Notes: generated by a model from the letters alone, not told the origin. 64,000 nt of DNA from Amphiscolops sp. MND2022 (GCA_964187785.1 OZ076409.1:20958001-21022000); one strand, 5' to 3'; positions 21,208-64,000 are shown, counted from the stretch's first letter. A program made the numbers and translations.

Positions 21208-21221
21208 TGGCGCCCAACGTG
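21208..21221 (+). promoter_or_regulatory. Primer-binding site, tRNA-Lys(CUU) type
   Basis: TGGCGCCCAACGTG directly after the LTR matches the known Lys1,2 PBS. Confidence 0.9.
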
Positions 21222-31307: not shown

Positions 31308-31416
31308 ATAATGTTCACTCAAATTACATCATCGTTCCATTTCGTTATCACTGTGTTGTTCACGAACTCAACGTTACATAGTTTGTATCACTTCAAGTTT
31401 TTGTTTTATGATCAAT

Positions 31417-32020
31417 ATGAGGTATCATACCTTCAAGTCTTCCACGACAAAGAATGTTTTGATTTCGGATTCTCAAGCAAAGTATCTTTTCTTCCAAAAT
31501 TTCAATATTTTATCAATTCCTGGGGAGGATCAAGGACGTTTGGTTATTTCTAAGGTCTACCGGTGAAAATGTATTAATAGTTCTGTTCATTGGAGGAAAT
31601 GACTTTTTCGAGTTCCAAAGACTTTCCGGGATTTCCTCCCAGAGCGCAGCTGACCAACTCAGTGAACTTGCTGAACATTTGAAAGAGTTATCGAGTAAAG
31701 TCTTCATCATTGGCATTCCTCCTCGAATGAATCAACCTGAACGCTCCCTGGCAGTCAACAGTCAATTAGCTGAAAAATCTCTTACTACAACTTCATGGCA
31801 ATTCCGAGGAATATCAAGTTCTATTTACAATTGTGATATTCACACAAAATCAGATGATGTACATCTTATTGAGAAAGGACTGAGCGGTATCAAATCAATT
31901 TTGAAGAAAAAGATACTTAGAAATCGATTCAATGCAGTTTTGGACAATGTTGGTCATACAAGTTTATTTGTATGTTCAGGGAAGTGCAAATGTGGATCTG
32001 CAAGAGCTTCTTATTGCTGA
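31417..32020 (+). pseudogene. SGNH/GDSL esterase-like accessory ORF of the BEL/Pao element (one frameshift at ~31525)
   Basis: Joined translation shows all four blocks in order: NVLISDSQ, ILSIPG.RIKDV, VLFIGGND, KSDDVHL. Confidence 0.75.
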
Positions 32021-32059
32021 GTCAAAGTTTCATCAATTTTGAGACTACTTACTGCTTTC

Positions 32060-32196
32060 TTCAGCCCCGGTACTTTTTTAAGTCCCTTGGCTAAACTATC
32101 CGCAGTTCTTTCAGCCCCTGTACTTGTTTTAGTTCCACTGGCTGAATTATCCGCAGCTCTTTTCAGCCCCGGTACTTTTTTGAGTTCCACTGGCTG
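32060..32196 (+). repeat. ~51-bp tandem repeat (~2.7 copies) in the BEL/Pao 3' UTR
   Basis: TTCAGCCCC(G/T)GTACTT...TGGCT(A/G)AA(C/T)TATCCGCAG repeated. Confidence 0.85.
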
Positions 32197-32379
32197 ACCG
32201 CAAACTTTTTCTGGTAGTCACATTGCTGATTAGTTAACATTACAAAATACTGGTTAAAACTTTCGATTTATTCCATACTTTGATACGTTAAATCCAGTAA
32301 GTTACGTTTCTATTCCTCAGGAGAAAGTAAACGGCTGTTTACCCGTTTCTTTGACTTCGCAGAGCAAAATGGGGACCGC

Positions 32380-32637
32380 TGTCACGAATGACTCAATGGA
32401 TTTTATGAATGAGTTTATCAATGGACTTTTTATTTCAATCAATTTCATGATGACCTTCTCATTCATGACTTATTCACTTTTTTGGTTCTACTTTGCCTTG
32501 ACTGGTCAGACATTCCTTGCTCTCAATGAATTATGGACATTATTATATAGACTGAATGTAACAAACTATGATGAATGAACGATGACATTACTGAATAAAC
32601 GCAAGAGGTTTGTAGTTAAACCCACTTATTTCTAACA
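32380..32637 (+). repeat. BEL/Pao 3' LTR
   Basis: Matches the 5' LTR; preceded by purine-rich AGAGCAAAATGGGGACCGC (PPT). Confidence 0.95.
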
Positions 32638-40564: not shown

Positions 40565-40960
40565 TTTTAGTCGGCGCTTTTCGAAGAAAAACGCAGACTA
40601 TAGTAGTGACTTTTTTTAAGACCAACGAACTGACAGATTTTATAAATTTTATAAGTTGGCACTAAACCGGCACTAACTAAACTGTGTCACACTACTTCAC
40701 TGCCACTTGGCCACTACGGCTTTTTCGAGGTCTGACAAGCAGAATGACATGGGTTCGAGTCCCGCCATGACCAAAATTTTTTCAAAAAATCTGTTTTTTT
40801 TTAAAAAAATCGGATTTCAAAAAAATTTCAAAAAAATCGGATTTTTTTTTCATTTTTTCCTCAAACGGGTACTGTAGAAGAGAATACTTGACACTTTGAA
40901 GTACTTTTGTTATTTTTGAGCCTTAGATATGGCGCCGACTTGGGCCGTTCCCGGCTTGTT
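40565..40960 (+). mobile_element. HINE-like element with tRNA-like B box
   Basis: TTAGTCGGCGC start, GGTTCGAGTCC at ~40752, GGCGCCGACTTGGGCCGTTCCCGGCTTGTT end. Confidence 0.75.
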
Positions 40961-44260: not shown

Positions 44261-44762
44261 CAAGCTGGGACCGGCCCAAGTCGGCGCCATATCTAAAAAA
44301 TCTTTCTATCTATCAAAAATATCTATCAAAAATAGCAAAAGGACTTCAAAATGTCTAAGTATTGGTGAATTTGGAACCTATGAAATTTTTTTTAAAAAAG
44401 TCTCACAATGCCGAAAAAAACTGAAAGGGAGGACCCTTTGGGATTTTTCAACATCCATTCTGTTGCAAAACTACAAAAAAAATGAAGGGGGGACCTTTTG
44501 GTGGAAAAAAATATTTGAAAAAAAGTCGCACAGTACCGAAAAAAATCTAGAGGGGACCCTTTGGTCTCGTCCGGTATTGTATGTTACGCGGGAAACCTTT
44601 TTGGTTCAATTCCTTGGGCCAACAGGTACAATTTGGCGTCTTCTCAAACTTTTTTAGAACTTTTGGTAGAACTATTTTGGTCACTTCAGGTGGTCTTAAA
44701 AAAACACTGACGAAAAGCCATGACTGTAGTCGACTCTTTTCAGGAAAAGCGCCGACTAAAAA
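44258..44762 (-). mobile_element. HINE-like element (reverse orientation)
   Basis: AACAAGCTGGGACCGGCCCAAGTCGGCGCC at left, GCGCCGACTAAA at right, internal GGGACCCTTT repeats. Confidence 0.75.
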
Positions 44763-44932: not shown

Positions 44933-45772
44933 GGTCCGAAGTGGATATAATTTTCAGAAGTGCGGCCGGAAAAATAAGTGAAACAACATCAGAGAAACTA
45001 GAGAGTTCACAAGAATCACCAACTTTGTGAAGGCTTTCAAAAAAATCATGCAAAAGTTCGAAAAAACGCTGGTTTATCTCACATATAAACTACTGCTGAC
45101 GAACTATTCTCTACTGCAATATTGCTTCTAAAAACTGAGAAATTTGTTCTAGTATTCAAATTTGTTTGTTCCTTGATGAAGTTTTTTTATATTTAATTTT
45201 TAAGATTATTATTTGAACAAATAGTACTATTGAATTTCAACGTTGAACCAAATTTGAACCAAATAGCTAGAATAAGAGGCATTTTGCTTCAGCAACGAAG
45301 AAACGCCGACGCAAAATCCAATTACTCAGAAGCGTGGGAAATTCACAAGTAACGTGGTAAATTAAAATAATGATTTAGATTAATCGAAGATTTGGATGGA
45401 AATTATTCTGGCAAATTCAGAAAGCAATCGATTTTACTTCATATTGGCAATCGAATTCCCTCTGGAAACTGAAGAATTTTGAATAACAAACTACATTAAA
45501 TTGGAAGTACATCATCAATTAAATAGGCTATTATATGATACAGAGCAACTTAACGTTTACCTCGATATACTTTAAATTACTGGGTATTATAATTACTTTT
45601 GTTACATTTTAGCCATCTTGAAAACTAGTTCGATTTTTACCATATCGCAAATATGGTACTTCGGAGCATCTGCATCGTATAAAAAATAACAATAATTTCA
45701 ATACCGGCTTTTCCTAAATTTTCAGTCAGGAAAACTTGTAGCAAAAGTGATCAATAAAGATGTTCTAATTAC

Positions 45773-46486
45773 TGTAACGGCAACTGCCCATGTCAAAATT
45801 TTCGAAGCAAAAATTCGTTCAAATCTGACGTGGCACTCAAACATGCTCCAGACGAAAGACCTGTCAGAAAAGCATATCAGAAATCAGAAATCGCCCCCCG
45901 CGAGAGACGACGAGAAGAGAAGACGTAGAAATCAGTCCCTAGAACACGGTGATGTGCCCATCTTTGGCGTTTACACTACATAGGTAGCAGAAACCTGTGT
46001 TCCAGATGCTCGCCTGAAGATCCTGCGGTGTCCTGTGCGGTGACGAGCGCTAGCGCTGGGAAGCCATGGTCGATTCGTTCCTGTTAGATAACTCAAACTT
46101 CTGATGTTGTTATGCTTATTGTGCTTTCCTTGTTGTAGTAGATTGATTTGCTCGAGAGCTGCCCATTTAACATCTGTAGTTACCCCTTTTGATGTCGATT
46201 TTATCAGATTCTCCAATACTATGGCTCAACATCCTCCTGTTTTCAGCCCCCTTTTTAAAGGCTAATTGAGCAGTGGTCTTGAGACATGCAAGATGCCCGT
46301 TACTTTTAGCAGTTACAGACTAGGACCAGGCCAGAGAGTTTCCAACAAGACGGTTCCCCACCTTGGGACTGGCTCCTTCGGAGGGAAAATGAGCTAGGGC
46401 CGCGGAGATCTAAGTCCCGGATTATATTCGCTGTTCTAGTTCCTCCACTCTACGTTGCGGTTCAAGCGCCAGCGCTTATCGTTACA
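45773..46486 (+). repeat. Gypsy 5' LTR (~714 bp)
   Basis: Terminal inverted repeat TGTAACG...CGTTACA. The right end is inferred because the 3' LTR is truncated. Confidence 0.75.
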
Positions 46487-46501
46487 TAGAACCTCATTTT
46501 T

Positions 46502-46519
46502 TGGCGACCACAGAGGGAT
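46502..46519 (+). promoter_or_regulatory. Primer-binding site, tRNA-Arg-like
   Basis: TGGCGACCACAGAGGGAT resembles the complement of the tRNA-Arg(UCG) 3' end (TGGCGACCACGAAGGGA). Confidence 0.65.
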
Positions 46520-47700
46520 CGTCTTGGGAAGCTTTCCCTAGCGGTTTTTAAAAGATCTGGCCCCCTGGTGATCAGCGCCAAGCCCGTTTCGACTCTGGAA
46601 GAGGAGAGAGAAGCAGAGTTTTACCTTTTTTAGTCGTGTGACATTCTACTGGAACTGGGAGAGGCGTTGAACCAGAGAAAACCCGAAAAAATCACGTTTT
46701 CAGGTGCGAAAATGGTATTTTTAGGTGTTTTGGAAGGAAATCGGTATTTTTGGGTGATGTGTTGTGTGCCCATCAGCGGGTATCTTTTTGCAGGTGCCGA
46801 AGACCGTAGCACGTGGCTACGGGTGTTTAACAGGTTTTGCAAGCTATTTTCAGCCATTTTATGCCATGCAAGAAGGTAACTGGTGGATGGCTGACCATGA
46901 ACCAGCGAGGCGAAGGGGAAGTCAAATTGTGTGTTGCCTACTTTCTACTCCCATTTCTCGTGGAGACGTCCTAGAGGTATGGTTTTTGGTGGACAGCAAG
47001 TGCAATTGCAGACGATGCTAATGGTCTAAACCGCGTGTCTCTATCTGGTCTGGATGTGGAGAAAAAGCGTGGTGAAGGTGCACCCCCTGTGACCGGACGC
47101 GTCGCTCAAATGGCTCATGGTCGGTGAAAATTTTGAAAATGCACCTTTTTCGACGGGGAATCGTTGGTGCAGGTCAGTAATGTTTTATTGTAGATGTAAC
47201 GACACCCAACGAAGTGCTTTTCTGCAAAAAAGATAGCACTTGCGTGAAAAAACCCTGATTTTGCGTTTTTTTTTGGTGTTTTTCGTGGTTTTGAGCACTT
47301 GTGCTCAGCGGAACCAGGAAAACTTCGTGAAAAGTGTTGCAAAAAGCAGCTGCAAGGCTCGAGAAAGCTAGTACGAGGCACAGAAGGCCGTAATTTTGCC
47401 TTTGGTTGTGATAAAAGTGCCGATCTAGCACCAGAAAATTGCAAAAAAGTGGAATTTTGACCAAAAAGGTACCCAGAAACACAGGCGTACACTTGTGTAG
47501 AAGTGTGAAAAAGCAGTGTACGGTGTTTTGTCGAGCGTAGTAAACCCACAGGACACTAACTGTAACTTTTACAGCGGATTCAGGCAGCCTGGGGCTGACA
47601 CGGTGCAAAAAACCGGTAATTTGAGGTGTTTTTAATCATCGAAAGTGCATAGTCTGAAAGTCTTGAGAGTGAAGCTTAGTGGAACAGAGCAAGTCTGAAC

Positions 47701-47974
47701 GCTCTTATTTTCTGTTTTCGCAATAAAAATAGCGCATTGTGGTGAAAACCGCGTGCAAAAACTCCTTTTCAGTGTCGAGAAAAGTTGAAAAACCTTGAAT
47801 TTTAGTTAGTTTCAGGAGTGTCCTAGCACACAATTAAAACCCCCTGGGCACTCTGTCTTTTTGTTAGTCAGGAGCTTTCGTGCTCTCATTTTCTGTTTCT
47901 ATAGTAAAAATAACGCATTGTAGTGAAAACCGCGTGCAAAAATTTCTTTTCGGTGCTGAGAAAAGTGGAAAAAC
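47701..47974 (+). repeat. Two ~93-bp direct repeats in the Gypsy leader
   Basis: GCTCT(T/C)ATTTTCTGTTT...CGCATTGT(G/A)GTGAAAACCGCGTGCAAAAA...GAGAAAAGT at 47701 and 47882. Confidence 0.85.
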
Positions 47975-49194
47975 GCACTGAATTTGATCAATTTTCCACA
48001 AAATCGGACTGTCTCTGAGCTAGGGTCGGGTCATCGATTCCTGAACCCTAGCCAAGAAGTGGTTGAATTTTCGTAACCACCACAATAATTAACGTTAGTG
48101 CCGAAAATTTGGTGGGCGTATCGCTCACCAAGGTCGAGAAAAACTCTCTGACGTTTTGACTGCAAAGAAGCGGCAAAGGACCGAAAAAATCCAAAACTGC
48201 AGGACTGTCGGTGCCTTATATCCAACGGGCACAACAAATTGAGGGTTTATCCCAGTGTTACGGGTAGTGGGGCAACACGTAGGTCCAACTTTGCCTGCCG
48301 TATCACTTTCAGAGGTGATCCTCTTGGCCAATATGTGAAAAAAGTCGTCAAAAACAGTGTTTTTTCGTGTACAACGTACATAGTGGGCCGGAACTTCAAA
48401 TAAGCGCTTGCGCTTCAATTCGACCATATCAGCGGCATTGTAGGTGCCCTTTGGCATAAACTATCAAGTTTGGTGCCGATCTGTGCGATACTTGTCGAGG
48501 AAATAGGAAAAACGCGGCGCCCAAAAAAGTGCGCAAAAAGGCAGTTTTTTCTTAATTTTTCCAAGTAACCCGGGTACCTTAGCCGACGGGTGGGGCTATA
48601 TTGCAGCCCACCATCGTAACTTGTGCTAGTTCCTACGTTGCTGCAGAGAATTTGAGCTTGCTAGCTTTTTCCAGTGGACCGCAATCTTGAAAAAGACGTG
48701 ACAAACAGTGTATTTCGGTACATAGTGGTACCGCACGTCTGTACCTAGGTGAAACTGTGTAGAAGGGGCGCAGCTCAAAACTGTGTTCATTTTCGTGAAC
48801 CTACGCGAACCTAAGATCTGCTGGTCAATTTTGGGCTTGATACAGCGCTTCCAGCGCACACACGAGCCTCTTGAGTGTTGTTGTGCGATTTGTGGAAAAT
48901 CCAAAATTTCTTTGAAATTCTTCCTGTGAGTGACCGGAGACTTTTGGCCCCAAACCAGGTTGATTTACTGACCCAGTGTGCTTGTGGGAAAGCGCTGTGC
49001 GAATTTGAGCAGCCTACGAGCCTTAAAACGCATTTCGAGAAATTTGGGACGTTGTGAAACAGTCAAATTTTTTAAGTCCACACCGAGACGAGCCTAGAGC
49101 TAACAGCGACTCGACAACTCCCGCGTTCTTCGAGATTTCTTTAAAGGCTACGCCCGAATCGTTGACACCTGCTCTGCCATTGGCATCGTATGTA

Positions 49195-51547
49195 ATGGTC
49201 CTACCAGGCCTGGAAAAGCTTGACATGAGTTCGCAGTCATGGGTGACCATAGGATCCACAATGGACGGTTCGCATTTTTCAGACGAAATGTCTGACGAAG
49301 TCACTATCGAGCAACAACGCAAAGAGGAATTGGCCGCCATGGTCCCTCCCTCTGAGGGTTCCGTTGCATCTGGAAGCTCTCGTCGAACCGAGCAATGGGT
49401 CGAAGAAACCTGTCGTGAAAGAACCAATGAAGCAGAAGAGGAGTGGCCCAACTCGAACATGACCAACGAACTTGCAGCTGAGGAAGGGTGCTCTCGCGCA
49501 CCCCTAGGAGAGAAGACGAGCTCCCGCCTACAGATCACGGTGGACGAGGATCTTACGTACACGGGGAACACGAGTTGTGCGAGACCGCAAGGGTCTGGGT
49601 TCACTCGAGGTAACACTAGAGTTTGTGCCTATGGCAAACACAAGAGAGTGCGACCACCCATGATAAATGTAGGTGAACGTCAATTTGAGGTGCCTCGTAC
49701 GAGGAGCGTGGCAGGTTCAGTGGCATCGTCCCAACGATCTTCGGTGTATAAAGCCGCAATATTGGAAGCCCAAGCTGAGACCCAACGTGCCTTAGCTGAA
49801 CTGGCTAGCACTCGTGCTGGGTGCAATGACCAACATCGTGCCATCGCTGAAAATATGAGAACGTTGCAGACAACGATGCAAGAAGGATTGCAGGTCAGTG
49901 ATCAACTGCGAACCGCGCAGAATACGCAGAGTGCTCGCGTAGATGCACTAGGCCACAGAATGGGTGAGATGAATGACCTTTTGATGGCCCGTGAACTTCG
50001 TGTGGAAACCCAGATCAATGATTTGAGTAACCAAATGCACACTGTGCTCAATGCTATCAACATCATGAGGCGCGAGAGGTCCCTCCCACGACAATCTGGT
50101 GCCACTGAAGGTGTGCCAGTCGCGGATTCAATTAAAATTCCGGAGTCATCGCACCTGGGTCGGGCAACGAAACCCGAGCTGGCGAGTGCATTGAAGCCTA
50201 GCACCTCCAAGTCGACGACGCCTGAAACCCGAACCAAGGATCCCGTACTCATCATGGCTGATGTGGAGCGTAAACCTGCACGGGTGCAGGTAAGAGGGCC
50301 CCACGACTCCTCGTCGATGAGTCAAATAACCTCCTCCGTAGTTCGAAGTGCCACCCGAGACCAAGGTGTGGACCCAATGTCACCTATCTATCTAGATACT
50401 TCTACCGAAGTTGACTTATCCTGTACCAAGGCCACACTAGGGTCCCAGACTGATGGAGCTGCGTATGCGACGGCCCCTACCATGGCTTCTGGAACGAACT
50501 CCCTGTATCTGACCGCCGACTGGACAGCCGAGGACGGAATGCCCTCGGGCGCTCCTTGTGCGAGTAGCACTCGCAAGAAAGAAGACATAGCGAACCTCTC
50601 AGTACGAGCCACGCATGGCAGTGACGACGGTACTGATGAAGTGGCACCCAAGGAAGGAGAGGCTGAAGTCATCTCTCCCGAGCAATTGAGGTTCACTGCC
50701 GCCATTTCCAAAGCGATGTCCAAAGAACTAGCACCGTTGCTTGCGGGACGTGACCTGGCTCAAACCAAACCCAGCGTGTATCGAGGCTCTAAGGACGGGT
50801 CTATTGATGGCTGGATCTTAGTGATGCAGCAATACTTGAAAAGAGCCCAAACCAAAGTCTCGGCCGAAGATCGGGCCTGGAGCATTATTGGTCATCTCGA
50901 GGGTGAGGCTCGCAACTACATCATCAACAAGGCTGAGTCTGAACGTGACACCCCCGAAAAGGTGTTCGAGTTGCTATCTAGCCGATTTGGCGCGGGAGGA
51001 AATCGTATGCAGGTGCGGCAGACCTTCCAAAGCCGCGTCCAACAAGAAAAAGAGGACTGGATGCAGTACTTAGACGCTTTAGAGGGTCTCAGGAGCCAAG
51101 GTTTCCCGCAAGAAAGTATCATTACCAAACGCAATGAAATCGTGCAGCGCTTCATGGAAGCTTCATTGAAGGTGTGCGAGATCCAGTGTTGAGGCGTGAA
51201 CTTGCCATAGTATACGCCTCGGAGACTTTTCTTACCGAACCCCCTACCGTAGAGTCCTTGCGATTTACCACACGTCAGCTGCAACGAAATCGTCTCAGAC
51301 CCACCCAACCTCAACAACCCTATGATCCCAGATTAGCCATGAGGTCTAGACCTCATCCTTTCGCACCACTGCCGCCGAACAAGATGATTATGCCGCAGGG
51401 CGACTTGCCACCTCCGGCGCCCCCCAAAATGTCCCAGCTCCCGCTGTCCCAGCTCCCGCCCGAGCGCCGGTAGGTGCTTGTTTTCACTGTGGGCAAAACG
51501 GACATTTTGCTCGCGAGTGCCCCAATCGTGACCAAGCCCGAAAACCA
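49195..51547 (+). CDS. gag: Gypsy Gag: long disordered/coiled-coil N-terminus, capsid, CCHC knuckle; two frame disruptions
   Basis: Capsid-like PSVYRG...IDGW...HLEGEAR...LSSRFG...FQSRVQ. An 11-bp duplication at 51149-51170 and a -1 shift at ~51425. CFHCGQNGHFAREC (51479-51520) is in the Pol frame. Start codon uncertain. Confidence 0.85.
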
Positions 51548-54500
51548 ATGACTGCCTCCGAACCAGAGGGCGTAAAGGTAACCACGGAAGACACGACCGA
51601 TGGCATCCTTGAAGGTCATCCGGGGATCTATCAATGCACGAGCTGTGGACTTTTCGATCAGGCGGAAGTGCAATGTGGTGAGCACTCCCATGCGCCGAAG
51701 CCCAGTGACGAGTTAGCCTACAATCGATGGGCTGAGGTCGAATCAGCTGGCATCGCCGCGCACACCGTACCTTTGGAAGATGACCGTGTGTTGATGCTAC
51801 ATCCAGCGGAACCGCCTGCGTTCCACACTCCGATGACATTCACTTGTGGTGCTAAGCAAGTTCAGACCTGCTTGGAACCCACGACGTTCGACCCGCAAGG
51901 ACGGACGCTGATTTCGATTCACCTGTTGCTGGCAGCTGAGCAAACACGTAGGCCGACGCTAACCCTGGCGAAGCTATGGGTCGAATTGTCTATCCTCTGC
52001 AAACGAAACGAGTTGCCTCGACCGAAAGAATGGTACGCTCCGGGAGAGTCTACGACTCTGACAACATATTCCCCAGTGCCAGTCTGTGCTTCAATGGATG
52101 GAGTGGATATGAAATTCGAAGCCTGTGTGGTGGTGGATGTATTTCCCCCTGGCATTTGTCTGGGTCCCCAGGAGCTCAAATGCTATAACATCAATCATCA
52201 GGAGCCCACCGGTGAAGCGCGTATAGATGAGCGTGCGTCGCTCGTGGTCTCTTTCGTGGTGCCTCATGCAGCACCTATTCCGCTGCGAGGACTGGTGGAC
52301 ACTGGCTCGGGCGTCTCCATACTGACGTTTTCCGCCTTTAACAGAGTGGCAGCTCGAACTGGAACGGTCCTTAAACCCTACCAAGTTGACCTGTACGCAG
52401 CCAACGGGAAGACAATAAAGACCTACGGCCTCGCAGAACATATCCATTTCCAGCTGGGAGGATACGAACTTGAAACGAACTTTGTGGTGGTAGATGACGC
52501 AATGGGTGTGGAAGACTTCCTACTTGGTCGGAACTTTCTCCGCTCCTACCAGGTGTTAGTGGATCTAACATCTATGAAGATTGTGGTGCGAGCACCAGTG
52601 AAGCCTGTGTGGCATCATGCTCACGCACAGGTAGGTGATACTTCGATAGCTACCCCAGTCGTTTTGGATAGTGACTTGGTTCTGCAACCTTTCGAACGTG
52701 CGGTGGCTAGAGCCAAGCTCGTCACCAATGCACTAGAGCCGCTGATTTTTCAAAGCGTAGCGCTCAATGTCTCTTTGTCTGACACTACGTTGCACAATGT
52801 CGTCTTTTTAGAGGACAGCGTGGCCACTGTCAGTGAGACAGGGACACTCTTTGTGAGCCTGATAAATCTCACCAGCAACCCTCAACGCATGCGGTGTGGT
52901 GTACAACTGGGCACCGTAGTACCCATAACGGTAGTATACCAAGCAGTACCTCAGTGTCTGGACTCTCCCACTACAACCCGCACAAAAACTGACGCCGACG
53001 ACAGTCGTGCAAATTTTGTTCATAAAATTTATAGTGAAGTGAATCTGTCCACTACTTCTGAGTTAACCTCTTCTTCAGAATTTGTGTTTTTGTCCTCAAC
53101 TGACCCTAGCGAGGCAGGACTATCGGAGCGCGAAATTCGCAAGCGAACGGACCCAGAGCTAATGGCTCCGATTCCTGGGCCAGAATCTCAGCTACAGGCG
53201 GTTAAGGATTTATGGGGCGCTAGCGCCTGCGAGTCTCTCAGTAACCTCCTCGATGAATTCGATGAGCTATTCATGAAACACAAGGCTGACATCGGTCGGT
53301 GCACTATCGCTAAGCACACCGTGGAGGTGGAACCAGGGGCTGTACCACATCGCGAAGGTGCTCGCCGGATGTCCCCTGAGAAGGCCGAACGTGCCAATCA
53401 GGAGGTGCGGAACCTCTTAGCTCTGGGAATGATACAGCCCTCGCTGTCCCCTTGGGCGAGCGGCATTGTAATGGTGAAAAAGAAAAACGGGGAGTTGCGC
53501 TTTTGCTGCGACTTCCGCCCGTTAAATGAGGTAACCATTAAGGATGCCTATCCCTTGCCCCGTATTGATGAAAGCCTGGCACGGCTAGGCAAGGCGAAGA
53601 TTTATACCAGCATAGACCTTGCTTGGGCCTTTTGGCAAATTCCTGTGCGGAAGGCGGATCGCCACAAAACCGCTTTTGCTTGTGAACTAGGACTTTTTGA
53701 GTGGCGGCGAATGCCATTTGGTATGTGCAATGCATCTGCCACGTTTCAGCGATCAATAGCGCGTGCGCTAAGGAATATTGTCAATCGTGAGGGCAGCATG
53801 GTCATGGCCTACATTGATGATATCGTGATTGCCACAGAGACTGTGAAAGACCATATGGTACGCCTACGTGAAGTCTTTGAATGCCTCCGTGAAGCCGGTT
53901 TCAAAATGCGCGTGGCCAAATGCGATTTCATGAAATCGGAGATCAAGTACTTGGGACGAGTGGTTTCCGCAGAAGGAGTGAAGCCCGACCCGAAAGCCGT
54001 CGTCAAGTTGCGCGATTGGGAAATTCCCCGTAACAAGACGGAGATGCAGAGCTTCCTAGGATTTGCCAATTACTATCGCGAATTCATCCCTTGGCACGCT
54101 AAGCTGGTTGCACCCCTGCACGCCGTCACTGGACTGAATGCCACCTTCGCATGGGGTCCTGAGCAACAAACCGCATTCAATGAGATCAAAAAAGCCCTGA
54201 TCGAGGCAACTGCGCTCGCGCAGCCTGATTCCGAAGGAGAGTTTGTGTTGGACACTGACGCTAGTGCTGTCGCCATTTCTGGTATCCTGCACCAGTGGCA
54301 AGGTCCTCCGGGTGAACGACGCCTGAGACCGATAGTTTACGGTAGCAAGAAGCTCACTACCACACAAGGTAAATACGGAGCTCCCAAGCTTGAAATGTTC
54401 GCCGCCTACTATTTCATAGTGAAAAACCACAGCTATTTATGTCCCCGGAAATTCACCCTGCGGGTAGACAACCAAGCCTTGTCCTGGTTAAAAACCTACT

Positions 54501-57499
54501 CCACGGATCAAGCGCTAATCGGCCGATGGATTATGACCCTGGAGAAGTATCACTTTCGCGTGGAACACCGCCCAAGAACTCAACATCGAAACGCCAATGG
54601 CTTGAGCAAACGAACCAACGAGTACCGATGCCGAGAGAAACAGCTTGCACAGCAGCCAGCCGCGGGCGAACGCTGGAATTTCCTTTCAGCTGACGAATTT
54701 GATAAACTACCCGTCGCCCCATGGTTCGACCTTCAGGGTCGAGTCATCCCGAATCATCCCGAACTACCTGCGCACCTGCAGAACTTGGAGCCTAAGGCTC
54801 CCAACCAATTGCTACGCGTGCTTCGCCGCACAAAACGAGCGAGCAGGAGAGACAGACAAGCGAAAGCATTCGCAGCCCCCTTGCCGCCTCCGCCTTTCCT
54901 TGCTCTGCAACCGCACGAGGATGCCTATCCAGACTACCCTGAGGACTGGATTGATGTCACTGATGAAGCACGCGAAGATTATCTATTACCGACGCATGCC
55001 GTAAATGTACCCTCACGTACCGTCTATGCTATTGCTGGGGCGAATCCTGTTGCGTTGCAAGGTACTCCCTCGGGTGTACGCGACTCAATTATGGCTCTTA
55101 AAGACATCAACACTGAACTTCACGAACATGCTCACACCGTGCATGGTATCAAAGACTTGATCCTAGCCCAAAACCGTGATGTTCATGTGCTAGCACTCAA
55201 AAGGTTGGTGCTAAACGAACCCATCCATCATGACGTGTTTCCCGAGAGCGTGCGTGAGTTCGCACGCAACTACTACCGTCAGAAGAAAACTCTCCTGTTC
55301 ATTAACAAGAATGGTGTGCTTTGCGTACGATACCCTCCCAACCAACGTCCCCTGCACGAACGTCCGTGCATGATCGTCATGCCTCAACTGTACCAGCATG
55401 AGATTTTATTCCGCGCGCATGACGCCATGGGACATCAAGGTATCTCCAAAGTGGTGGCTCGGATTCAAGAACGTCACACATGGCCTGGTATTCGACGCAG
55501 CGTGGGCCGTTACGTTGGTCAATGCCTCACCTGTCAACAGGTTCGAGATAAGCCTGGTGACGTCCGATTCCACCTAAAGAACATTCAGAGCGGGTACTTC
55601 AACGAATTGGTCCAATATGATCATCTGAAGATCTGCCCCTCGGACAGTAATAACACTGGCATCTTGGTCATAATTGACCATTTCTCCAAGTTCGCGGAAG
55701 CAGTTCCCTGTAGTCATCACGACTACGACGCTGTGACCACCTCTCGGTTGCTGCTGCAAAAGTGGTTCGCCCGTCATGGCACACCCACTAGAATGCAGTC
55801 TGACAATGCTCCAAATTTGACAGCTGAGGTATCCAACGAATTCCTAAAAGCAGCCCACGTTACCAAGGTAACCTCTACGGCTAGCCATCCGAGAACCCAA
55901 GGCTTGGTGGAGCGTCAAAACCGGACATTATTAACCCTACTGCGAGTTTTTTGCTCCCGCCGTATGCGCGACTGGGACCAATGTCTTGATGAGGTCATGG
56001 GCGCCTACAACTCTACGAGGCACGCCACCACTGGCTTCTCACCCTACATGCTGACCCGTGGTGTAGAGAAGGCCATCCCTCTCACGTTTTTCTATCCCGA
56101 ATTTGCAGCCAAATCATTCGAGTCGCATGAGGCGTATGTCGATCATGTATTGGCTCGCCAGCAGGAAATACATGACTTGGTACGGCGTAACACGCACCAA
56201 GCCCAATTGCGTCAAAAGTTGAAGTACGACCGTGCTATACAAGCGCGAGCTTACCAAGTAGGCGAGCTCGTCTGGGTATTTTGCCGCTACGTACCGCAAA
56301 AGGGTTCCCCGAAATTGATGCGTGCTTGGCGAGGCCCGCACAAGGTTGTACAAGTCTTTCAGGACGGTCGTGTCTATGTACTAGACACCGGTAAAAAGGT
56401 TCATTTTGAGCGTCTTAAACCGCACCACAGTGGCCCACTTGAACTTGCTACTGCACACACGGACAGTGGTGAGGTGGTGGTACTTATGGACCCCGAACCT
56501 GAACGTTCCGTCGACGTAGTTGATGACGACAAGTCTTTATCGTCGTATAAACCCGAACAACTACTTTCAGAAGCGTCCGATGCATCTTTGCCCTCACATC
56601 GACGTCACTGGATGGACACTCGACTACGCACGAAACTTCGCGCAGGCGGCTCCCGCCCGCATTATCAGCAATTTGACTATTCCACCTCGGGTACAGATGA
56701 CGAACTATCCGATGCCATGTTGCCGATACCTCCTAATCCAGTTGACGAGGATCTAGTGGAGCCTGCGGCTCCTCCGGCTGCGTTGGATCAGTCGATATCC
56801 CCCGCCCGTGTACTACCTCAACTGTTCTCTGACCATGAGCGCCTGCGCTCACCGTCTCCACAGATATCCTCCTCCGAAAAAGAAACATCGTTACCAGGAA
56901 CCTCAGCATCCTTGTTGACGAATCCCTCGCTAACCAATTTTCTTAGTAACTATCCCATATGGCCGGCCGCCCCTCCGATTCCTCTCAAATCTGCCAGCAG
57001 CGACAGCAACGTTCAGCCCGATCTGCCTGAAGTTCCCGAGACTTCGCCAGGAGCGGGGACCGCTCCTTCTTTTAAAAGGGGGAGGGGGAGACCACCCAAG
57101 GCACAGAAGAAACGGCTGATCCGAGCGAAAGCAAAGACGAGGAAGAAAGAAACACCGAGAAATGCCGAAACCGAAACTGCGATACAGGCCGAAACGGAAG
57201 CTCCCAGAACTGCAGAGACGCTAACAGAGGCATCTGCAACTGCTCTTAGGTATCAACTAAGGAGTAAACGGCAGCCGCGCTACAAGTGTGGAACCTGCGG
57301 GCTGCGAGATTGTGTCTGCCTATTAGCTGTGAATGAGAACCGGAGGGTTCCCATTGGAGCCCGGGGAGTTCCTCCGGAAGAGAGAGAAAACTTGGTGTAC
57401 CGCCTCACGGTGCGGGCCGAGAAAACCTACTCAGCTGTAGAGCGGTCCGGAGACCACCCTGTAGACACTATCCTGGAGAAGTTGTCACTCCCGGGGTAG
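51548..57499 (+). CDS. pol: Gypsy Pol (PR, RT, RNase H, integrase, long C-terminal extension)
   Basis: LVDTGS (D at 52298), YIDD (53810), LDTDAS, H-H-CC zinc motif, D-D-E (QYDH, SDNA, LVERQN), GPH (GPY/F-like), KRGRGRPPK; 1983 aa uninterrupted. Confidence 0.97.
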   Translation: MTASEPEGVKVTTEDTTDGILEGHPGIYQCTSCGLFDQAEVQCGEHSHAPKPSDELAYNRWAEVESAGIAAHTVPLEDDRVLMLHPAEPPAFHTPMTFTCGAKQVQTCLEPTTFDPQGRTLISIHLLLAAEQTRRPTLTLAKLWVELSILCKRNELPRPKEWYAPGESTTLTTYSPVPVCASMDGVDMKFEACVVVDVFPPGICLGPQELKCYNINHQEPTGEARIDERASLVVSFVVPHAAPIPLRGLVDTGSGVSILTFSAFNRVAARTGTVLKPYQVDLYAANGKTIKTYGLAEHIHFQLGGYELETNFVVVDDAMGVEDFLLGRNFLRSYQVLVDLTSMKIVVRAPVKPVWHHAHAQVGDTSIATPVVLDSDLVLQPFERAVARAKLVTNALEPLIFQSVALNVSLSDTTLHNVVFLEDSVATVSETGTLFVSLINLTSNPQRMRCGVQLGTVVPITVVYQAVPQCLDSPTTTRTKTDADDSRANFVHKIYSEVNLSTTSELTSSSEFVFLSSTDPSEAGLSEREIRKRTDPELMAPIPGPESQLQAVKDLWGASACESLSNLLDEFDELFMKHKADIGRCTIAKHTVEVEPGAVPHREGARRMSPEKAERANQEVRNLLALGMIQPSLSPWASGIVMVKKKNGELRFCCDFRPLNEVTIKDAYPLPRIDESLARLGKAKIYTSIDLAWAFWQIPVRKADRHKTAFACELGLFEWRRMPFGMCNASATFQRSIARALRNIVNREGSMVMAYIDDIVIATETVKDHMVRLREVFECLREAGFKMRVAKCDFMKSEIKYLGRVVSAEGVKPDPKAVVKLRDWEIPRNKTEMQSFLGFANYYREFIPWHAKLVAPLHAVTGLNATFAWGPEQQTAFNEIKKALIEATALAQPDSEGEFVLDTDASAVAISGILHQWQGPPGERRLRPIVYGSKKLTTTQGKYGAPKLEMFAAYYFIVKNHSYLCPRKFTLRVDNQALSWLKTYSTDQALIGRWIMTLEKYHFRVEHRPRTQHRNANGLSKRTNEYRCREKQLAQQPAAGERWNFLSADEFDKLPVAPWFDLQGRVIPNHPELPAHLQNLEPKAPNQLLRVLRRTKRASRRDRQAKAFAAPLPPPPFLALQPHEDAYPDYPEDWIDVTDEAREDYLLPTHAVNVPSRTVYAIAGANPVALQGTPSGVRDSIMALKDINTELHEHAHTVHGIKDLILAQNRDVHVLALKRLVLNEPIHHDVFPESVREFARNYYRQKKTLLFINKNGVLCVRYPPNQRPLHERPCMIVMPQLYQHEILFRAHDAMGHQGISKVVARIQERHTWPGIRRSVGRYVGQCLTCQQVRDKPGDVRFHLKNIQSGYFNELVQYDHLKICPSDSNNTGILVIIDHFSKFAEAVPCSHHDYDAVTTSRLLLQKWFARHGTPTRMQSDNAPNLTAEVSNEFLKAAHVTKVTSTASHPRTQGLVERQNRTLLTLLRVFCSRRMRDWDQCLDEVMGAYNSTRHATTGFSPYMLTRGVEKAIPLTFFYPEFAAKSFESHEAYVDHVLARQQEIHDLVRRNTHQAQLRQKLKYDRAIQARAYQVGELVWVFCRYVPQKGSPKLMRAWRGPHKVVQVFQDGRVYVLDTGKKVHFERLKPHHSGPLELATAHTDSGEVVVLMDPEPERSVDVVDDDKSLSSYKPEQLLSEASDASLPSHRRHWMDTRLRTKLRAGGSRPHYQQFDYSTSGTDDELSDAMLPIPPNPVDEDLVEPAAPPAALDQSISPARVLPQLFSDHERLRSPSPQISSSEKETSLPGTSASLLTNPSLTNFLSNYPIWPAAPPIPLKSASSDSNVQPDLPEVPETSPGAGTAPSFKRGRGRPPKAQKKRLIRAKAKTRKKETPRNAETETAIQAETEAPRTAETLTEASATALRYQLRSKRQPRYKCGTCGLRDCVCLLAVNENRRVPIGARGVPPEERENLVYRLTVRAEKTYSAVERSGDHPVDTILEKLSLPG

Positions 57500-57570
57500 C
57501 GAAGGCCCCTTGTCCTAGGTTTAAGGAGTGGACTAGCGATGGAAAGGGCCTGGAGTTTACCCTGCCCACG

Positions 57571-58620
57571 GTGTTGCCCCCTGTGCCCAGTAATATTGCG
57601 TTTGGACCATTCAATTTTGAAAGGGAACCTGTGCAGATGGCCCGATGCATCACTGCCGACTTGTTATGCGATAAGTATGGAGTCCAGGTGGAACCAGGAG
57701 GGGTATACAGCCCGGCTCCTCACTGGTGGCTGCTGGTAACAGCTCCACGAGTGGAGGCGATGGTGGAACCGTTGAATCTGTTATCCTGTCAAGAGAGTCT
57801 GAGGACCCTCACCACTGTGGACTTAATACTTTGCTTCCATATCATAGACTGGTACCGAGGCAAGATGAAGTTTGCATGGTGGCTGGAATTAATTATCACA
57901 TGTTTCGCCACCTATCCCAGAATTCGACTGTTAGACGAGTGGACTCACACCTTCGAGATCCCCCTGTTCCCCAAAGCCGCCCTGGAAACTTTAGATGCGT
58001 GGGTAGAGGCCGGCAGCGACAATCGAGCGATGCCCCGCTCAGTGTGGCAAGACCTGGCTGCAGTCCAAGGGCGTACGCCTCGCGTGTGTCTGCCCTCCGA
58101 CAATGGTCCCGGACGAGAGATTGTTTACCCGGGAGCCCTGTATCCGAATTCCGCCGAACATGTTTCTTACGATGAAGCTGATTTCTTGCAGGTTGAGGGC
58201 GACATAGTGTTAGCATGCCCTGCTGACCTAAAAACCAACTCTGCCTCCCTGCGATATGTGCTGCGGGAGTGCAGCATGGAAGATGTATTTGCCTTACGAC
58301 CTAAAGTGGGCGAGATTCTCACTATCCCGCCTGATGTGAACCCCAACCCTAATCAAAGTATTCACCTGTTAATAGTCCGTGCTAACCAGCGCGCACCGCT
58401 GCTGACCGATGACTACTTGCGCTGCATGACGTACTTGATACAGCGCCTGATAGACAAAGGATCCACACGGGTCCACTTACCCATTCTGGACCCCGAGAGA
58501 CCGGCTTTCTCGTTGGTCAATCTGTACCATACTCTAACGAACATGTTCGAGGGTACTGGTATTCGCGTGGTTTTGCATAGCCGCGTATATGTATCGATAT
58601 TAACTATAGGGCTGGAGTAG
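57571..58620 (+). CDS. Tandem TARG1/Poa1p-like macrodomain ORF, probably the Pol C-terminus via a -1 shift
   Basis: Two units follow the TARG1 motif order: MARCITADL / VLACPADL, PGGV / KVGEI, WLLVT / HLLIVR, FHIID / LPILD, CFATYPRIRLL / MFEGTGIRVVL. The frame is open from 57337, overlapping the pol stop. Confidence 0.65.
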   Translation: MLPPVPSNIAFGPFNFEREPVQMARCITADLLCDKYGVQVEPGGVYSPAPHWWLLVTAPRVEAMVEPLNLLSCQESLRTLTTVDLILCFHIIDWYRGKMKFAWWLELIITCFATYPRIRLLDEWTHTFEIPLFPKAALETLDAWVEAGSDNRAMPRSVWQDLAAVQGRTPRVCLPSDNGPGREIVYPGALYPNSAEHVSYDEADFLQVEGDIVLACPADLKTNSASLRYVLRECSMEDVFALRPKVGEILTIPPDVNPNPNQSIHLLIVRANQRAPLLTDDYLRCMTYLIQRLIDKGSTRVHLPILDPERPAFSLVNLYHTLTNMFEGTGIRVVLHSRVYVSILTIGLE

Positions 58621-58883: not shown

Positions 58884-58903
58884 CTAACAGTGGTCCTTTT
58901 TAG
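58884..58903 (+). promoter_or_regulatory. Putative branch point and 3' splice acceptor for the downstream ORF
   Basis: CTAAC...CCTTTTTAG ends 12 nt before the ATG at 58916. Confidence 0.5.
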
Positions 58904-58915
58904 ACCTATGCATTA

Positions 58916-61900
58916 ATGGCCCATTGCCCAAACAGTTCAGCGCCTGCAACAGGGTCTAGTAGTGCAAGGCCCCAGGAATCTGCGCGAGCGCAGAGGGTCA
59001 ATCAGGCCCAATATGTCGAAGAGAGGCTGCGGGACGGTCTTTCGCCAGTAGCCGTAGCTGGGGTGGCTGCCTTACTGACCCAGCTTGAATCGATGCAAAT
59101 GCTGCCAAATGCATCCTTGTCGATCACTACGGAGGTGGCAGGCTATCGTCGCACCTTGACGTGCACCAACAATGCCTGGGATGGGCACGACCTGACTCAC
59201 CAGTTCTTGGACGAAAGATCAATCACAGTGCATGGCCCCAGCCAGGGCACCAGATTCGAACAAGAAGCATCACTGCGTATGATGCCCGTCAACGTCCCAT
59301 CGCTGCCTTCTATTTCGGCACCAAATCCAGTGCAGATGACGCCGTATTCTAGCTCGCTTGCTTATGGGGCACCATATGGAACCCAGGCAACGATGACGCA
59401 AAACACTACCAATCAATCAGCCTCAAGTCGGGAGCCCTCGGGGTCCCAACTGCCATCAGTGCCTAATCTAAATCTTATCGGACGGAGTGCCAGCGAGCAA
59501 GCGGTGATTGTGGCCCTGCAGGCGGTCGCCAACTACCCCAACTCCTCTGACTTCGTTCGTGCAGTTGAGCAAAGGATTCCCGGATTGGCACACTATTTGC
59601 AAGCCGCAGCTCAGCCCTCGGGCTGTGTCACCCCACCCACCACCCTAGCCGAAGCTGTGTCTATGGAAGCAGAAACCACGGCTGGACCAAGCACCAGCGC
59701 CATAACATATCCCCGTGAGGAAACTGGACGGAAGCGACTTACTGAGGAAAACATCGTCGCTACACGCCATAATTCCGTGACCGACAGTCCGACCAGTCGT
59801 CCCCCTCCGGACAAGCGAGCAGATGTACCCCAGCAATCGCAAATGAAGAGTGTAGTGGTCGTGAGGCCTCCATATCGCGTCGGCCACCTGGGCGTAGGCG
59901 CGCCTCAAATGTCCATGGAAGAGGCCATCAACCGCTACGGCAGTGTGGATGCGAATCCTGAAACGAATCCTGTGCCCTTGGGCACAGGCTCTGCCAACAT
60001 GTCCCTGGAGGTGCCCGAGACTGTCGAAGAGACCAGCCCTCCCGCCTTTCTTCCCCCGTCAGATGATGTATCCGGCTCCGTGGTAACTAGCGATAGTAAA
60101 CGCATCTGGATGGCAGCAGAGTGTTTGCACCCGAACACATGTGCGATTAGAAGGAGAGCACCGCCGTCGGACGCCGAGCAAAGAGAGGTGAGCAGAATCA
60201 CCATTGCGGCTCAAATAACTCGATCGCTACGTGCCCGTGATGCGGACCTAAGTGAGCAAGCCTGGGAACAGCGTGCTCGAGAGCAACTGCCCGCCACACC
60301 CAACAACTACATGGCTCGCCTGCAGCACGACCTCACCGAGCAATTTCCCGCCAGGTACATATTGCGCGAAGGAGAAACCTGGGAGGCAAACGCCCGCTAC
60401 GCTCGCAATATCAGGTCAATGAAGCCCCTCTTGAAAGCAGCTCTGCAGCGTGCGCGCTATTGTGTAGCGGTAGATTCGACATTCAAGAGTGATCTGCCCA
60501 TCGATAACCTTCTGCCCGATGTGCTGGTGTTAACAATGCCACTCTCCCGCTTCGCCGAGGTCGCAGAGATGGTCGCGGTTATGTACGACCCAAACCTGAG
60601 AGGGTCCCTAAGAGAGCCGCCCCCGCGACGTGTAGTCTTCACCAACTTGATCGACCACATGGCTTGTGAAGGACTGCTACACAACCTGGATGCCCTCATG
60701 GCAGATACCCGTAGACCTGGGAATGTGGCGACCTTAGTAAACGTTGTTGCGGATGCAATGGAGCGTGCAGCAGGGATCCTTCGGGGTCGTCTGGGAGCGC
60801 TCGCGCTCTTTACATCCCCGCCGGGATTCATGTATTGGCAACGAAGCTTGCAGCAGTTTGTGTACATCTTGTCTGAGGTATGCAAGGCGCGCCGAATCGA
60901 GTTTGCTATATGTGCGCCAAATCTTCGGGTTGATCGCGGAGACCTACGCCCCGATGCATTGTCATACCCTGCCTTCTTTGCTGCTGTATCAAGAGTGCTA
61001 ATCACTGTGGAACGATCGGGAAATGCACAACTGACTATCGACGATGCCATACTGTTCGACCATGGAATGTGTATGGGGCGAATGGCCTTCGACTTGGACG
61101 GGAATCGCGTCATGCGAGCATCTAACATGAGTGAGCGAGAGGCCGTTCGACGCTACAACTGGCTGGTGCGGAAAGACAAAGAGATTCCCGTACGAGCAGA
61201 GCTGGCAGAGCTCGTGAAGGAAATTGAAACATGGCCTGCCACACGCACGGTCGGAAGGACCATTCCCCAAATTCGGTTTGCCGCGGGAATAGAGCCTGTC
61301 AAGTTGCCCGTGGGCATGAAGCGGCTGTGGAGGCGACCAACTTGAAGACTGCAGTAGATGCCGCCGGATTAACGTATGCCGAATGGTATCAGTCCAGATT
61401 CGTGGACAGGACCTTGGCCGAGGTAGCTCAAGAGCTTAACTGTCCCTTGGAAGCCTTTTGCAACAGTCTCGGACTAGGCTGGAACATCGACGTAATAGCC
61501 TCTGAGTTCTTGCTCACCAATGTGCAGACTGACAAATTGTTGGAAACCATCGGCGAAACTACTGTAGGAGAGATGTTAGCGCTCGCGCTAACCATGGGCC
61601 CGACAAAGTTTGTGGCAGGTCCCCTGGCTATGTTAGTCGAGCTGGTAGTATCCAGTGATCTAGTCACCTTTTACAGCTACCTGATCCTCGCGCAGGGACA
61701 GCTACGCAGCCTAACTCGATGGGGTCACCTCCTAAATTCCAAGGACCAGCAATATTATGTCACCCAGCTGGAACGCATGCGTGCGTCCCTCCAACATTGG
61801 TTGTATTCCACCCTAGTGTTCGCCTCTGGCTTGTTCGTAGGCGTGGATCAATCGCAACCCCTCCACAATTCCGAGCGTCAACTCCCTGCGGAAACGGCGG

Positions 61901-63189
61901 GATTTCCTATGCCCCAGCAAATCGCCGATTTGACTCTGGCCGAAGTGGAGGACTTCGTGGCCGTTATGGCTTCCGTCCTGGCCCCAATCTTCGGTGCGGT
62001 CGGTGTGTGCCGGTATCCCACCAAACCACTGGCGAGAGCAGTGCAGGTGCACATGGTCTCCTTCTGCACCTATCTCCAAGGCCGCCCCCCACTGACCTAT
62101 CAGCGCATCGTGCAGGCCGTATTGAGTGGCGAGGTGCCGCATGGGTATACCACCTTGAAGTCGGAGAAACAGCTGGAAGAGAACTTGATGGGTCTGTTGC
62201 GTGCCCGCACACGAAAGGCGTGCCCTTTGACACGAGAATACGGCCAAGTCAACTGGTACTCCGCGCCTCTCAGCCTGAATGGAGTCCCCTTTAGATTCCC
62301 TTGGTCGCAGGAGTTTATACGCAAAGTGATCCGTGCCAGCACTAGTGCTGGTCCACCAATAGATCCCCTGTACGCCTTCAAGTGCATCACCTTCCCAAAT
62401 CACTACTGGAAGGAGCCACTGGGATGGCCCAGAGCAAAACCCGTTGGTCGCGCCCCTGAAGCCTTCAATCGCCAAATCCAGTATGTTGAATTGGCTCAGA
62501 TCCCAAATTGGATTGAAGGAGCAGCTCAGACTCGTCAGAGGAACCTGCAAAGACGCGTGACTCCGTTCCCTAGAAGAGCTGCCTGGAGACCGCAGGCCAA
62601 GATGACGATGTCAGGGGATATGTCCATCGTCCAGCACGATGAGATCAATTCCGTGCTAGGCCCCGAAGCCCGCGCAGAGTGGGAAGGACATTGCTTGGAG
62701 CTGGAGAATGCCAGCTTCCCAAAATGGAAGCGAGCTTGCGAGCTCTGGAGTCAGCCTGGCTGGGTCTCCAAACGAATATCCTTGGCCGTGGAGAGTAGAG
62801 CTGAACTCGAGAGACAACAGGCGTTCGCGCCTGCCATGCTGGCACCCACAATGGCCATGTCATTAAGTCAGCCCATCGACCGGCCCGTGACTCTGGATTT
62901 GCCTACCCATGTTCTACAGCCAGAGCCTGTGAGTCCACCATCGACACAGGCCAGTCCTCAGTCATCGCAACCCCAAACCGGAGAACACGCCGCTGAACTG
63001 ACCCCTAACACTATCCTGGTGCAGCCGATCGCCGATTTAGCGCTCCCAGAAGACCTATCAGACTCGGAAACAGTAGTTACTGTGGTTCCTGCTCAACGTA
63101 GAGCGTCAGTTGCGTCGGAAGATGCCAGCAATCCAGGAACTCCCGATGATGCCATAAAGAATCGAGCTCGACGCAGCTCAGCCCAATAA
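58916..63189 (+). CDS. Large accessory ORF (~1,420 aa when one -1 shift at ~61320 is corrected) with a degenerate SGNH-like domain
   Basis: The 809-aa and 652-aa ORFs overlap and join as ...PVGMK/AAVEATNLK. Motifs CVAVDS, VLTMPLSR, VVFTNLID, LFTSPP, DLRP. AATAAA overlaps the stop. Confidence 0.75.
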
Positions 63190-63945
63190 ACCCTGCCGCC
63201 AATGGGAGCGTTCGCGCTCCCTATAGACTCTAAACTCCGCCGAAACTGTGCCTTCAAACTTATCGCTTTAACCGGTGCTACCCGTACATGGTGCAATTTT
63301 TTGTTCATAGTTATTACTTAGTTAATGTATTGTTAGTAATGCGCTGGGAGTACGGCCAATAGAGTGCGCCTGCCCCAGCTGCTTCGCCTACAAAAGTAAA
63401 CAAGAATCTATTACCAAAGAGAAACTGCTATTTTTGTTGCGCGCCGTTCGCGGTGTTTTTGAGTTGCCATAGCCAAGAAAAAGTCTTAGCCTTTTAGTTA
63501 CGGTTTTTGCTGTTTTTCCTTGTGTTTTGGTGTTCAAGCATCTTCTATCGACTGTCTAAGGAGTAGCCGAAGCGGCGCCCTCCCAAAAGAAGTTTTACGT
63601 TGCCCGAAATTGACCGAAAACTGTAAATGTCAAGTTGCATAAAAAAAGGAGATTTTAGCTGACCTTGGTCGCAAAAGAATTTTTAGCGAAAACTGCTTGC
63701 CCAAACGAGTTTTAACCGACTGAAAACCTTAGCTCTCGAGCTGGTGCTAAAACCTCGTTTGCATTTTTGTAAAAAATACTAGGCAGTAAAATTTTCCTTG
63801 AAAAAAACCGCGAAATTTGCCAAAAATAGTTGCTGAAAAACAAGGACTCGTCCTTGTCCCCTGTGGTGTGGATGATGGTTCCCAGCAGTCACTGCGATGC
63901 CGTTTCCAGACGAGGCCAGATGCCGCTTGCCAGGAACGACAAGCC

Positions 63946-64000
63946 AGAAGCCCGGGGAGTGATGTAACGGCAACTGCCCATGTCAAAATTTTCGAAGCAA
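63946..64000 (+). repeat. PPT and start of the Gypsy 3' LTR (from 63963)
   Basis: AGAAGCCCGGGGAGTGA followed by 38 nt identical to the 5' LTR start. Confidence 0.9.

Follow-up and report, generated by a model that had tools for sequence, protein, structure and literature searches.

Unrelated retroelements have captured SGNH esterases again and again, for reasons that are not understood, and most of the described cases retain the active site. In the bdelloid Vesta LTR retrotransposons, ORF3 is a GDSL/SGNH protein with invariant catalytic residues and with no transmembrane segment or coiled coil; an auxiliary or membrane role is proposed for it (PMC5408684). The ORF1p esterase of ZfL2-1 binds anionic phospholipids and liposomes, not oligo-A (PMC3905857). 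The OSK domain of Oskar resembles an SGNH hydrolase that has no catalytic residues, and it binds RNA (PMC5785220). A different kind of novelty is found in the Cer1 element of C. elegans, where CERV, a novel protein translated from a spliced mRNA, is reported as needed for gRNA export (PMC10309623). In the open literature searched, the bdelloid paper was the only one found to place SGNH domains in LTR elements. The families treated here may already be catalogued in Repbase or Dfam.

The window, which is the whole stretch of 64,000 nt analysed from Amphiscolops sp. MND2022, contains an LTR element of 18.9 kb whose last gene is the accessory ORF considered here. A first-pass annotation had drawn attention to this ORF as a non-env gene in the env position. 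The ORF is real; it follows the pol frame and precedes the 3′ LTR (63963). The parts of the element, all on the plus strand, are these:

45770..45772 (+), 3-bp target-site duplication (TAC), the second copy directly after the 3′ LTR, beyond the window.
45773..46486 (+), 5′ LTR of 714 bp, TG...CA, with 5 mismatches and 1 gap against the 3′ LTR.
46502..46511 (+), primer-binding-site-like TGG motif, 15 nt past the LTR, its spacing identical in sister copies and families.
49027..51192 (+), gag, with a weak PNMA-like capsid match (PF14893, E 0.0012, under the cut-off), broken from pol here.
51350..57499 (+), pol, in the Gypsy order (CCHC, protease, RT, RNase H, integrase), from the domain search.
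57337..58620 (+), conserved C-terminal extension of Pol, an own frame only in the window copy, from comparison of copies.
58884..58903 (+), CTAAC branch-point-like and TTTTTAG acceptor-like sequence, 12 nt 5′ of the ATG.
58916..63189 (+), accessory ORF in place of env, 1,426 aa when unbroken, with a frameshift near 61,320 in the window copy.
58973..59230 (+), conserved N-terminal segment, residues ~20-105, 43-80% identity between families.
After the N-terminal segment, up to residue ~390 of the accessory ORF (+), low-complexity region.
60431..61075 (+), alpha/beta domain, residues 506-720, likely an SGNH-derived pseudo-esterase, from models, profiles and conservation.
61303..61803 (+), all-helical domain with the HTH-like TLAEVAQELNC, from the model (pLDDT 52-87 by blocks).
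61834..62778 (+), conserved C-terminal region, net basic (+9), from conservation, the model being of low confidence.
61954-62010 (+), internal hydrophobic stretch inside the C-terminal region, from hydropathy.
63943..63962 (+), polypurine-tract-like sequence.
63963..64000 (+), start of the 3′ LTR (715 bp, its end beyond the window), from sequence and sister copies.

The TG...CA LTRs, the gag gene and the order of protease, RT, RNase H and integrase are those of Gypsy elements (Metaviridae), and the named RT relatives come from frogs and fish (38-42% identity). Together with a putative Bel/Pao-like element, also present in the window, these relatives point to an animal host. Gag, pol and the Pol extension form one continuous frame in four of nine fetched copies; in the window copy the reading frame is interrupted where gag meets pol, ahead of the Pol extension and inside the accessory ORF. 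The extension (57337..58620) is without a Pfam match or a PDB sequence match and may carry a macro-domain-like pattern. The family is young, because the LTR pairs of its copies differ so little: besides the window copy, the eight other copies having both LTRs show 0-3 differences. It is very abundant and recently spreading.

The target-site duplication is 3 bp in all 27 insertions whose ends are both clear (9+8+4+2+4 over five copy sets; one tandem pair, one mutated end and copies with an end beyond the fetched stretch were left out of the count). The usual length in Gypsy is 4-6 bp, and in one survey the 108 of 43,226 maize elements outside the usual range are ascribed to recombination or mutation (10.1101/137141). 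The present lineage does not share this 4-6 bp trait. Its membership in Gypsy stands nonetheless, because duplication length is a typical and not a defining trait. No LTR family with a regular 3-bp duplication was found in the open literature searched. A duplication of 3 bp throughout the clade points to an altered geometry of the integrase. Annotation filtered on duplication length would miss such elements and, if the reading of a 3-bp stagger is true, a large share of genomes of this kind is under-called by the standard LTR finders.

A short deletion near 61,320 splits the accessory ORF of the window copy over two frames, 58916-61345 and 61228-63189. It is not a chance frame, since a search of its own genome (1.07 Gb; 3,217 candidates, 132 of them scored) gave matches that were 97-100% identical in 132 of 132 cases, with an open frame of 1,420-1,431 codons in 68 of them (exactly 1,430 in 47). 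The ORF is thus conserved among the copies of its family, and an unbroken natural copy of 1,426 aa served as the query for searches and folds. Its homologues form families of about 80%, 50% and 41% identity, all mapping to the same genome, and the most distant family retains ~32% identity in the SGNH-like domain. The gene keeps its position in five related families, down to that ~32%, and in 16 of 16 copies fetched for synteny (seven of the 41% families, four of the 80% and five of the 50% family) it lies 3′ of the integrase and the Pol extension. The earlier question of whether homologues always sit inside Gypsy elements can be answered with yes, wherever the context was fetched. In the representative search, of which the best 150 of 794 matches were covered, fragments filled the list and masked distant matches.

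Selection on the ORF is strongly purifying. In pairwise comparisons, both within the family and with the 80% family, the SGNH-like part has a dN/dS of 0.02-0.07; the values are 0.02-0.29 over all regions with measurable dS in close comparisons, with the maximum in the low-complexity ends; between families dS is near or at saturation. The SGNH-like part makes up 15% of the protein and is its most conserved region between distant families (52%, vs. 40-43% in the helical and C-terminal parts). A Pfam search with the window ORFs and 16 aligned members placed no family on the accessory ORF, a PDB sequence search with the protein gave no match, and no relative of it was met in metagenome and viral contigs. 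One match to a tobamovirus-like capsid protein (E 0.022) was rejected, as two repeats each gave E ~10.

Is the protein a divergent envelope glycoprotein? Its place in the element, an env-like acceptor and one internal hydrophobic stretch would suit an envelope. The N-terminus, however, is not hydrophobic, which fits the lack of a signal peptide stated in the first-pass annotation: the best 19-residue Kyte-Doolittle window is -0.64 (first 25 starts; hydropathy only). Values of -0.64, -0.54 and -0.44 in three families indicate proteins without a signal peptide, and in a fourth (one 41% family) the frame continues 5′ of the acceptor as a hydrophobic extension. The claim that there is no clear C-terminal anchor was right about the C-terminus, which is polar and rich in Pro, Ser and Thr, but it overlooked the internal stretch, which covers residues 1016-1034 of the unbroken copy (KD 2.28); in the 41% families it is weaker (KD 1.7) and rich in Pro. 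By hydropathy, then, the accessory protein is one without signal peptide or C-terminal anchor, and its predicted alpha/beta and helical models have no clear match among fusion proteins. A captured host retrocopy with no function for the element fares no better: the retrocopy test turned up no named homologue and dN/dS far below 1, and synteny is kept family-wide. Both ideas are largely refuted and we give them next to no weight. The protein appears, as proposed, to be a new accessory protein that is neither an env product nor a host retrocopy.

In six of seven loci an acceptor-like pyrimidine run followed by AG is found no more than 20 nt from the ATG, such motifs having a background of 0.5-1.4 per kb. 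The first-pass annotation had overlooked this motif, as it had the gene-less subfamily, the tandem SGNH domains of the sister clade and the 3-bp duplications. In the most distant family the acceptor was not found next to the first Met, and a strong splice donor common to the families was looked for and not found; because of these two results we go no further than to infer, from the acceptor motif, that the ORF is likely read from a spliced subgenomic RNA.

The motifs quoted in the first-pass annotation are all where it had placed them: CVAVDS at 60461-60478, VLTMPLSR within 60521-60550, VVFTNLIDH at 60632-60658, LFTSPP at ~60806-60823, DLRP at 60941-60952 and TLAEVAQELNC at 61411-61443. A model of the domain by itself (226 aa, 56 sequences, pLDDT 65, pTM 0.67) predicts five strands in beta-alpha order with a core pLDDT of 75-96; a larger model (900 aa) has pLDDT 43 overall and ~70 in two domains. 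A wide structural search with the 900-aa model put SGNH/GDSL hydrolases at ranks 3-12 (Z 5.2-5.7, rmsd 4.8-8.0) and OSK at rank 24 (Z 5.0, rmsd 6.4, 148 aligned), where Z < 8 may mean just a common arrangement. At ranks 3-12 the alignments run end to end, model residues 138-306 on whole chains. GDSL or SGNH is named in the title of 10 of the 50 rows, three of them among ranks 3-12; we take 16 more of the 50, including OSK and the other seven of ranks 3-12, to be SGNH proteins as well. A structural search of a viral library named SGNH/GDSL in 6 of 50 rows. CgnD, at rank 2 in two structural lists, is called a hydrolase in the accessible text, in which SGNH/GDSL wording does not occur, and was not counted.

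With the domain-only model, TIM barrels lead the list or share the lead (top Z 8.0, rmsd 7.2), the SGNH proteins 1bwp and 3p94 having Z 6.0 and 5.8. Three Foldseek searches with the predicted models gave no match at E<=0.001. The degenerate SGNH fold of the first-pass annotation is thus likely but unproven: the low-Z list is crowded with SGNH proteins, but no match reaches E<=0.001 and TIM barrels tie. Compared by HHalign with intact SGNH domains from the same genome (22 of 30), a first, shallow profile stayed within the shuffles, while a deeper one scored 19.6 (shuffle maximum 19.1) with blocks I-III in the right register. By HMM the intact SGNH domains of that genome were not detectably related (E>=0.087), and the domain profile against PDB sequences gave nothing useful. 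Overall, and counting the sister clade treated next, we consider an SGNH origin of the domain likely, with the fold unproven.

Support of another kind comes from a clade that is sister to this one by RT (98/93 support; 57% identical); it was sought in the same genome and not found there, and it comes from another genome. Two of its proteins carry a homologous domain (profile probability 90%, score 43, vs. 9-26, maximum 25.8, in 60 block shuffles), and by HMM among 120 Pol proteins the E-value is 3e-4 for one and 4.3 for the other, the link consisting of these two sequences, which are apparently internally rearranged. The homologous domain reads FAG[IM]NDH, the block III pattern, and has the block II Gly in one of the two proteins (P0317). 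Upstream of it lies an intact SGNH esterase (PF13472), with GDSL, GTND and DGIH in P0261 and only the DGIH end in P0317. The second domain compared with the intact SGNH set scored 13.1, not above shuffles. We infer that the accessory domain goes back to the downstream member of a tandem pair of SGNH domains such as the sister clade has.

These data also bear on the view that the domain is not SGNH-derived, its motif spacing being incidental, or that the protein serves as a protein-protein scaffold, e.g., a suppressor of host silencing. There is no significant family or fold match, and TIM barrels tie. In the 41% families the ORF core is 41% identical where RT and integrase are 87% identical, a far faster divergence, and host-facing proteins often diverge fast. 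On the other hand, the end-to-end alignments are enriched in SGNH proteins, GxND is present in the homologous domain of the sister clade, and none of the pairwise tests gives a region with dN/dS close to 1 or higher. We regard this view as rather improbable.

What became of the catalytic residues? The block I nucleophile is kept: Asp-Ser is present in 10 of 10 alignment rows covering the site and aligns with GDS, the Gly being replaced by a hydrophobic residue. The block II Gly is absent, its position in the alignment being taken by Leu, Cys or His. VVFTNLID had been read as block III; its place does align, but its Asn falls on the Gly of GxND, so that the block III Asn is lost as well (NxxDH aligns with G[IM]NDH, with Asn at the Gly place and a hydrophobic residue at the Asn place). 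In block V, assigned by spacing in a region of low confidence in both models, the proposed change of His to Arg holds, Arg-Pro standing for His-Pro, and the Asp is not kept in distant families. Because the block II Gly, the block III Asn and the block V Asp and His are not kept, the domain, if it is of SGNH origin, is very probably not an esterase. The catalytic set being lost, we class it as a likely pseudo-enzyme rather than an SGNH hydrolase, in agreement with the original suggestion of a pseudo-esterase.

If the domain were instead an active hydrolase or acyltransferase, its rewired site would rely on the retained Ser together with the Asp-His that follows block III and looks invariant. 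The set DS, NxxDH, PPG and RP is indeed kept across families down to ~30% identity, in the best conserved part of the protein. Yet the residues missing from blocks II, III and V are those just listed, and the sister clade has a separate, intact esterase upstream. To us such an enzyme seems quite improbable.

The locus can now be set beside the described systems. It shares with the Vesta LTR retrotransposons an extra ORF with an SGNH domain in the env position of a Gypsy-like element, but it differs from Vesta ORF3 in that the catalytic residues are lost and the domain is only 15% of a multi-domain protein of 1,426 aa. In carrying an SGNH derivative without catalytic residues it is like the Athena-L Penelope-like elements (PMC5408684), which belong to another retroelement class and are likened by description, not by sequence. 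The esterase of CR1/L2/RTEX ORF1p (ZfL2-1) is likewise an SGNH module in an accessory or structural protein of a retroelement (PMC3905857); it is active, with a strongly conserved site, and is encoded upstream of pol in a non-LTR element, whereas the accessory ORF is degenerate and downstream of pol. OSK, which is in our structural list, is an SGNH-like fold that lacks catalytic residues and serves in binding; it is part of a host germ-plasm protein with LOTUS, and the accessory ORF has no LOTUS or OSK Pfam match. Planarian Burro is also a large, very high-copy Gypsy element with extra domains, but it exceeds 30 kb, has other cargo and carries an env-like sequence inside ORF1, no esterase being mentioned in the accessible text (PMC6431247). 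CERV is likewise a novel non-env protein of a Gypsy element, with a spliced mRNA.

CERV and OSK suggest another function, that of an RNA-binding pseudo-enzyme like OSK or of a CERV- or Rev-like exporter or localiser of the unspliced genome. OSK is the precedent for an SGNH-like, catalytically empty domain that binds RNA (PMC5785220; rank 24, Z 5.0), and CERV that for a protein of spliced mRNA needed for gRNA export (PMC10309623). The protein itself has an Arg conserved at the His position, a conserved, net basic C-terminal region and HTH-shaped helices. The HTH-like TLAEVAQELNC does have a helix-turn-helix shape in the model (pLDDT 68-81), but no Pfam match; the all-helical domain spans residues ~799-965 of the protein and was barely covered by the wide structural search. 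Against RNA binding, the SGNH-like domain is net neutral (23 K+R, 23 D+E), and the basic runs of the protein are short, none being conserved as a clear NLS.

A family at 73% RT identity bears on the same question. Eight copies were fetched. The gene is present in four (two of them unbroken, with a frame of 1,450 codons) and absent from four, in which the 3′ LTR follows 1.28 kb past the pol stop and the frames have ~3,000-3,120 codons. In the gene-less copies gag-pol is intact and the LTR pairs are 99.9-100% identical. The accessory gene is dispensable in cis, given this one young subfamily without it. Secondary loss is the simplest reading and is preferred because the gene occurs both in sister families and in the outgroup clade; it is possible that the gene-less copies receive help in trans. 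CERV is required for gRNA export, whereas the accessory gene is missing from a young subfamily, the two being alike in kind and not by demonstrated homology. The intact gag-pol of these copies weighs against an RNA or export function, trans help being possible, and we hold such a function to be unlikely, if still a serious contender.

We prefer, tentatively and at a little short of an even chance, the view that the protein is a pseudo-esterase adaptor that binds lipid or membrane and is made from spliced RNA in place of env. A spliced subgenomic RNA would give a soluble accessory protein; its likely SGNH-derived domain, having lost the catalytic set, would bind lipid or membrane in the dead pocket; and the adaptor would position the Gag particles of the element, taking the place of the envelope. 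The models for this are the ZfL2-1 esterase and the role proposed for the bdelloid ORF3 proteins. The least certain point is the ligand, for which membrane is preferred over RNA because of the behaviour of the ZfL2-1 esterase and the neutral charge of the domain. In a bolder and improbable version, env has been exchanged in a Gypsy clade for a soluble adaptor of the SGNH pseudo-esterase type, which arose when a captured esterase was duplicated and the active copy lost. This adaptor would carry particles that have no envelope across membranes, or along them, to germ or stem cells; the clade would have an integrase with a 3-bp stagger, so that LTR finders under-call it.

The families form a natural series: the sister clade has an intact and a derived domain, five families have only the derived one, and the young subfamily has no gene. 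With such a series binding could be told apart from catalysis, and the part played by the SGNH module could be put to the test.

The accessory ORF is absent from a young subfamily (copies L094-L097) that has intact gag-pol and near-identical LTRs. An out-of-frame ATG, lying 8 nt 5′ of the ORF start, between the acceptor-like motif and the start codon, is common to three families (58908-58916 in the window; copies L046, L056 and L062).

SGNH and SGNH-like domains occur in other elements. In the sister RT clade, from another genome, an intact SGNH esterase is followed by a derived SGNH-like domain, and the clusters of this clade have thousands of members. In the Amphiscolops genome, an unrelated repeat family, its integrase 27-31% identical, carries an SGNH esterase with intact motifs shortly 3′ of the integrase, and there are several further repeated SGNH families (L072-L093).

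Sister-clade proteins: P0261 1314-1487 and 1790-1855, and P0317 C-terminus, tandem SGNH region
Genomic copies L064, L066-L071, L075, L086, L088: unrelated repeat family with integrase and SGNH esterase

Pol has a conserved extension, 41-86% identical between families and weakly matched in the sister clade. It had no match in Pfam or among PDB sequences; its last ~150 residues have a pattern that may be macro domain-like.

57337-58620: C-terminal extension of Pol, 3′ of integrase

Target-site duplications were 3 bp long in all 27 insertions with clear ends, over four groups of families; the usual range for LTR elements is 4-6 bp (10.1101/137141).

45770-45772, with L013: 3-bp duplication of the window element
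L015-L029, L038-L045, L059/L058, L061/L060, L102-L105 with L094-L097, L107-L136: other loci of 3-bp duplications

The leader of the window element (46487-49026) is 2.5 kb long without a long ORF, and leaders are conserved in blocks between families (72-84%). A TGG PBS-like motif stands 15 nt from the LTR (46487-46511), as in sister families; this distance is usually 0-3 nt.

47701-47974: short direct repeats within the leader

Elsewhere in the window, two decayed copies in tandem (20950-32637), spaced ~4.64 kb apart, are presumably Bel/Pao-like, judging by ORF pattern. There is also a 122-bp inverted repeat (18272-18520; arms 94% complementary, spacer 5 nt).

10561-10864, 16920-17452, 40830-40960, 44425-44490: dispersed repeat family
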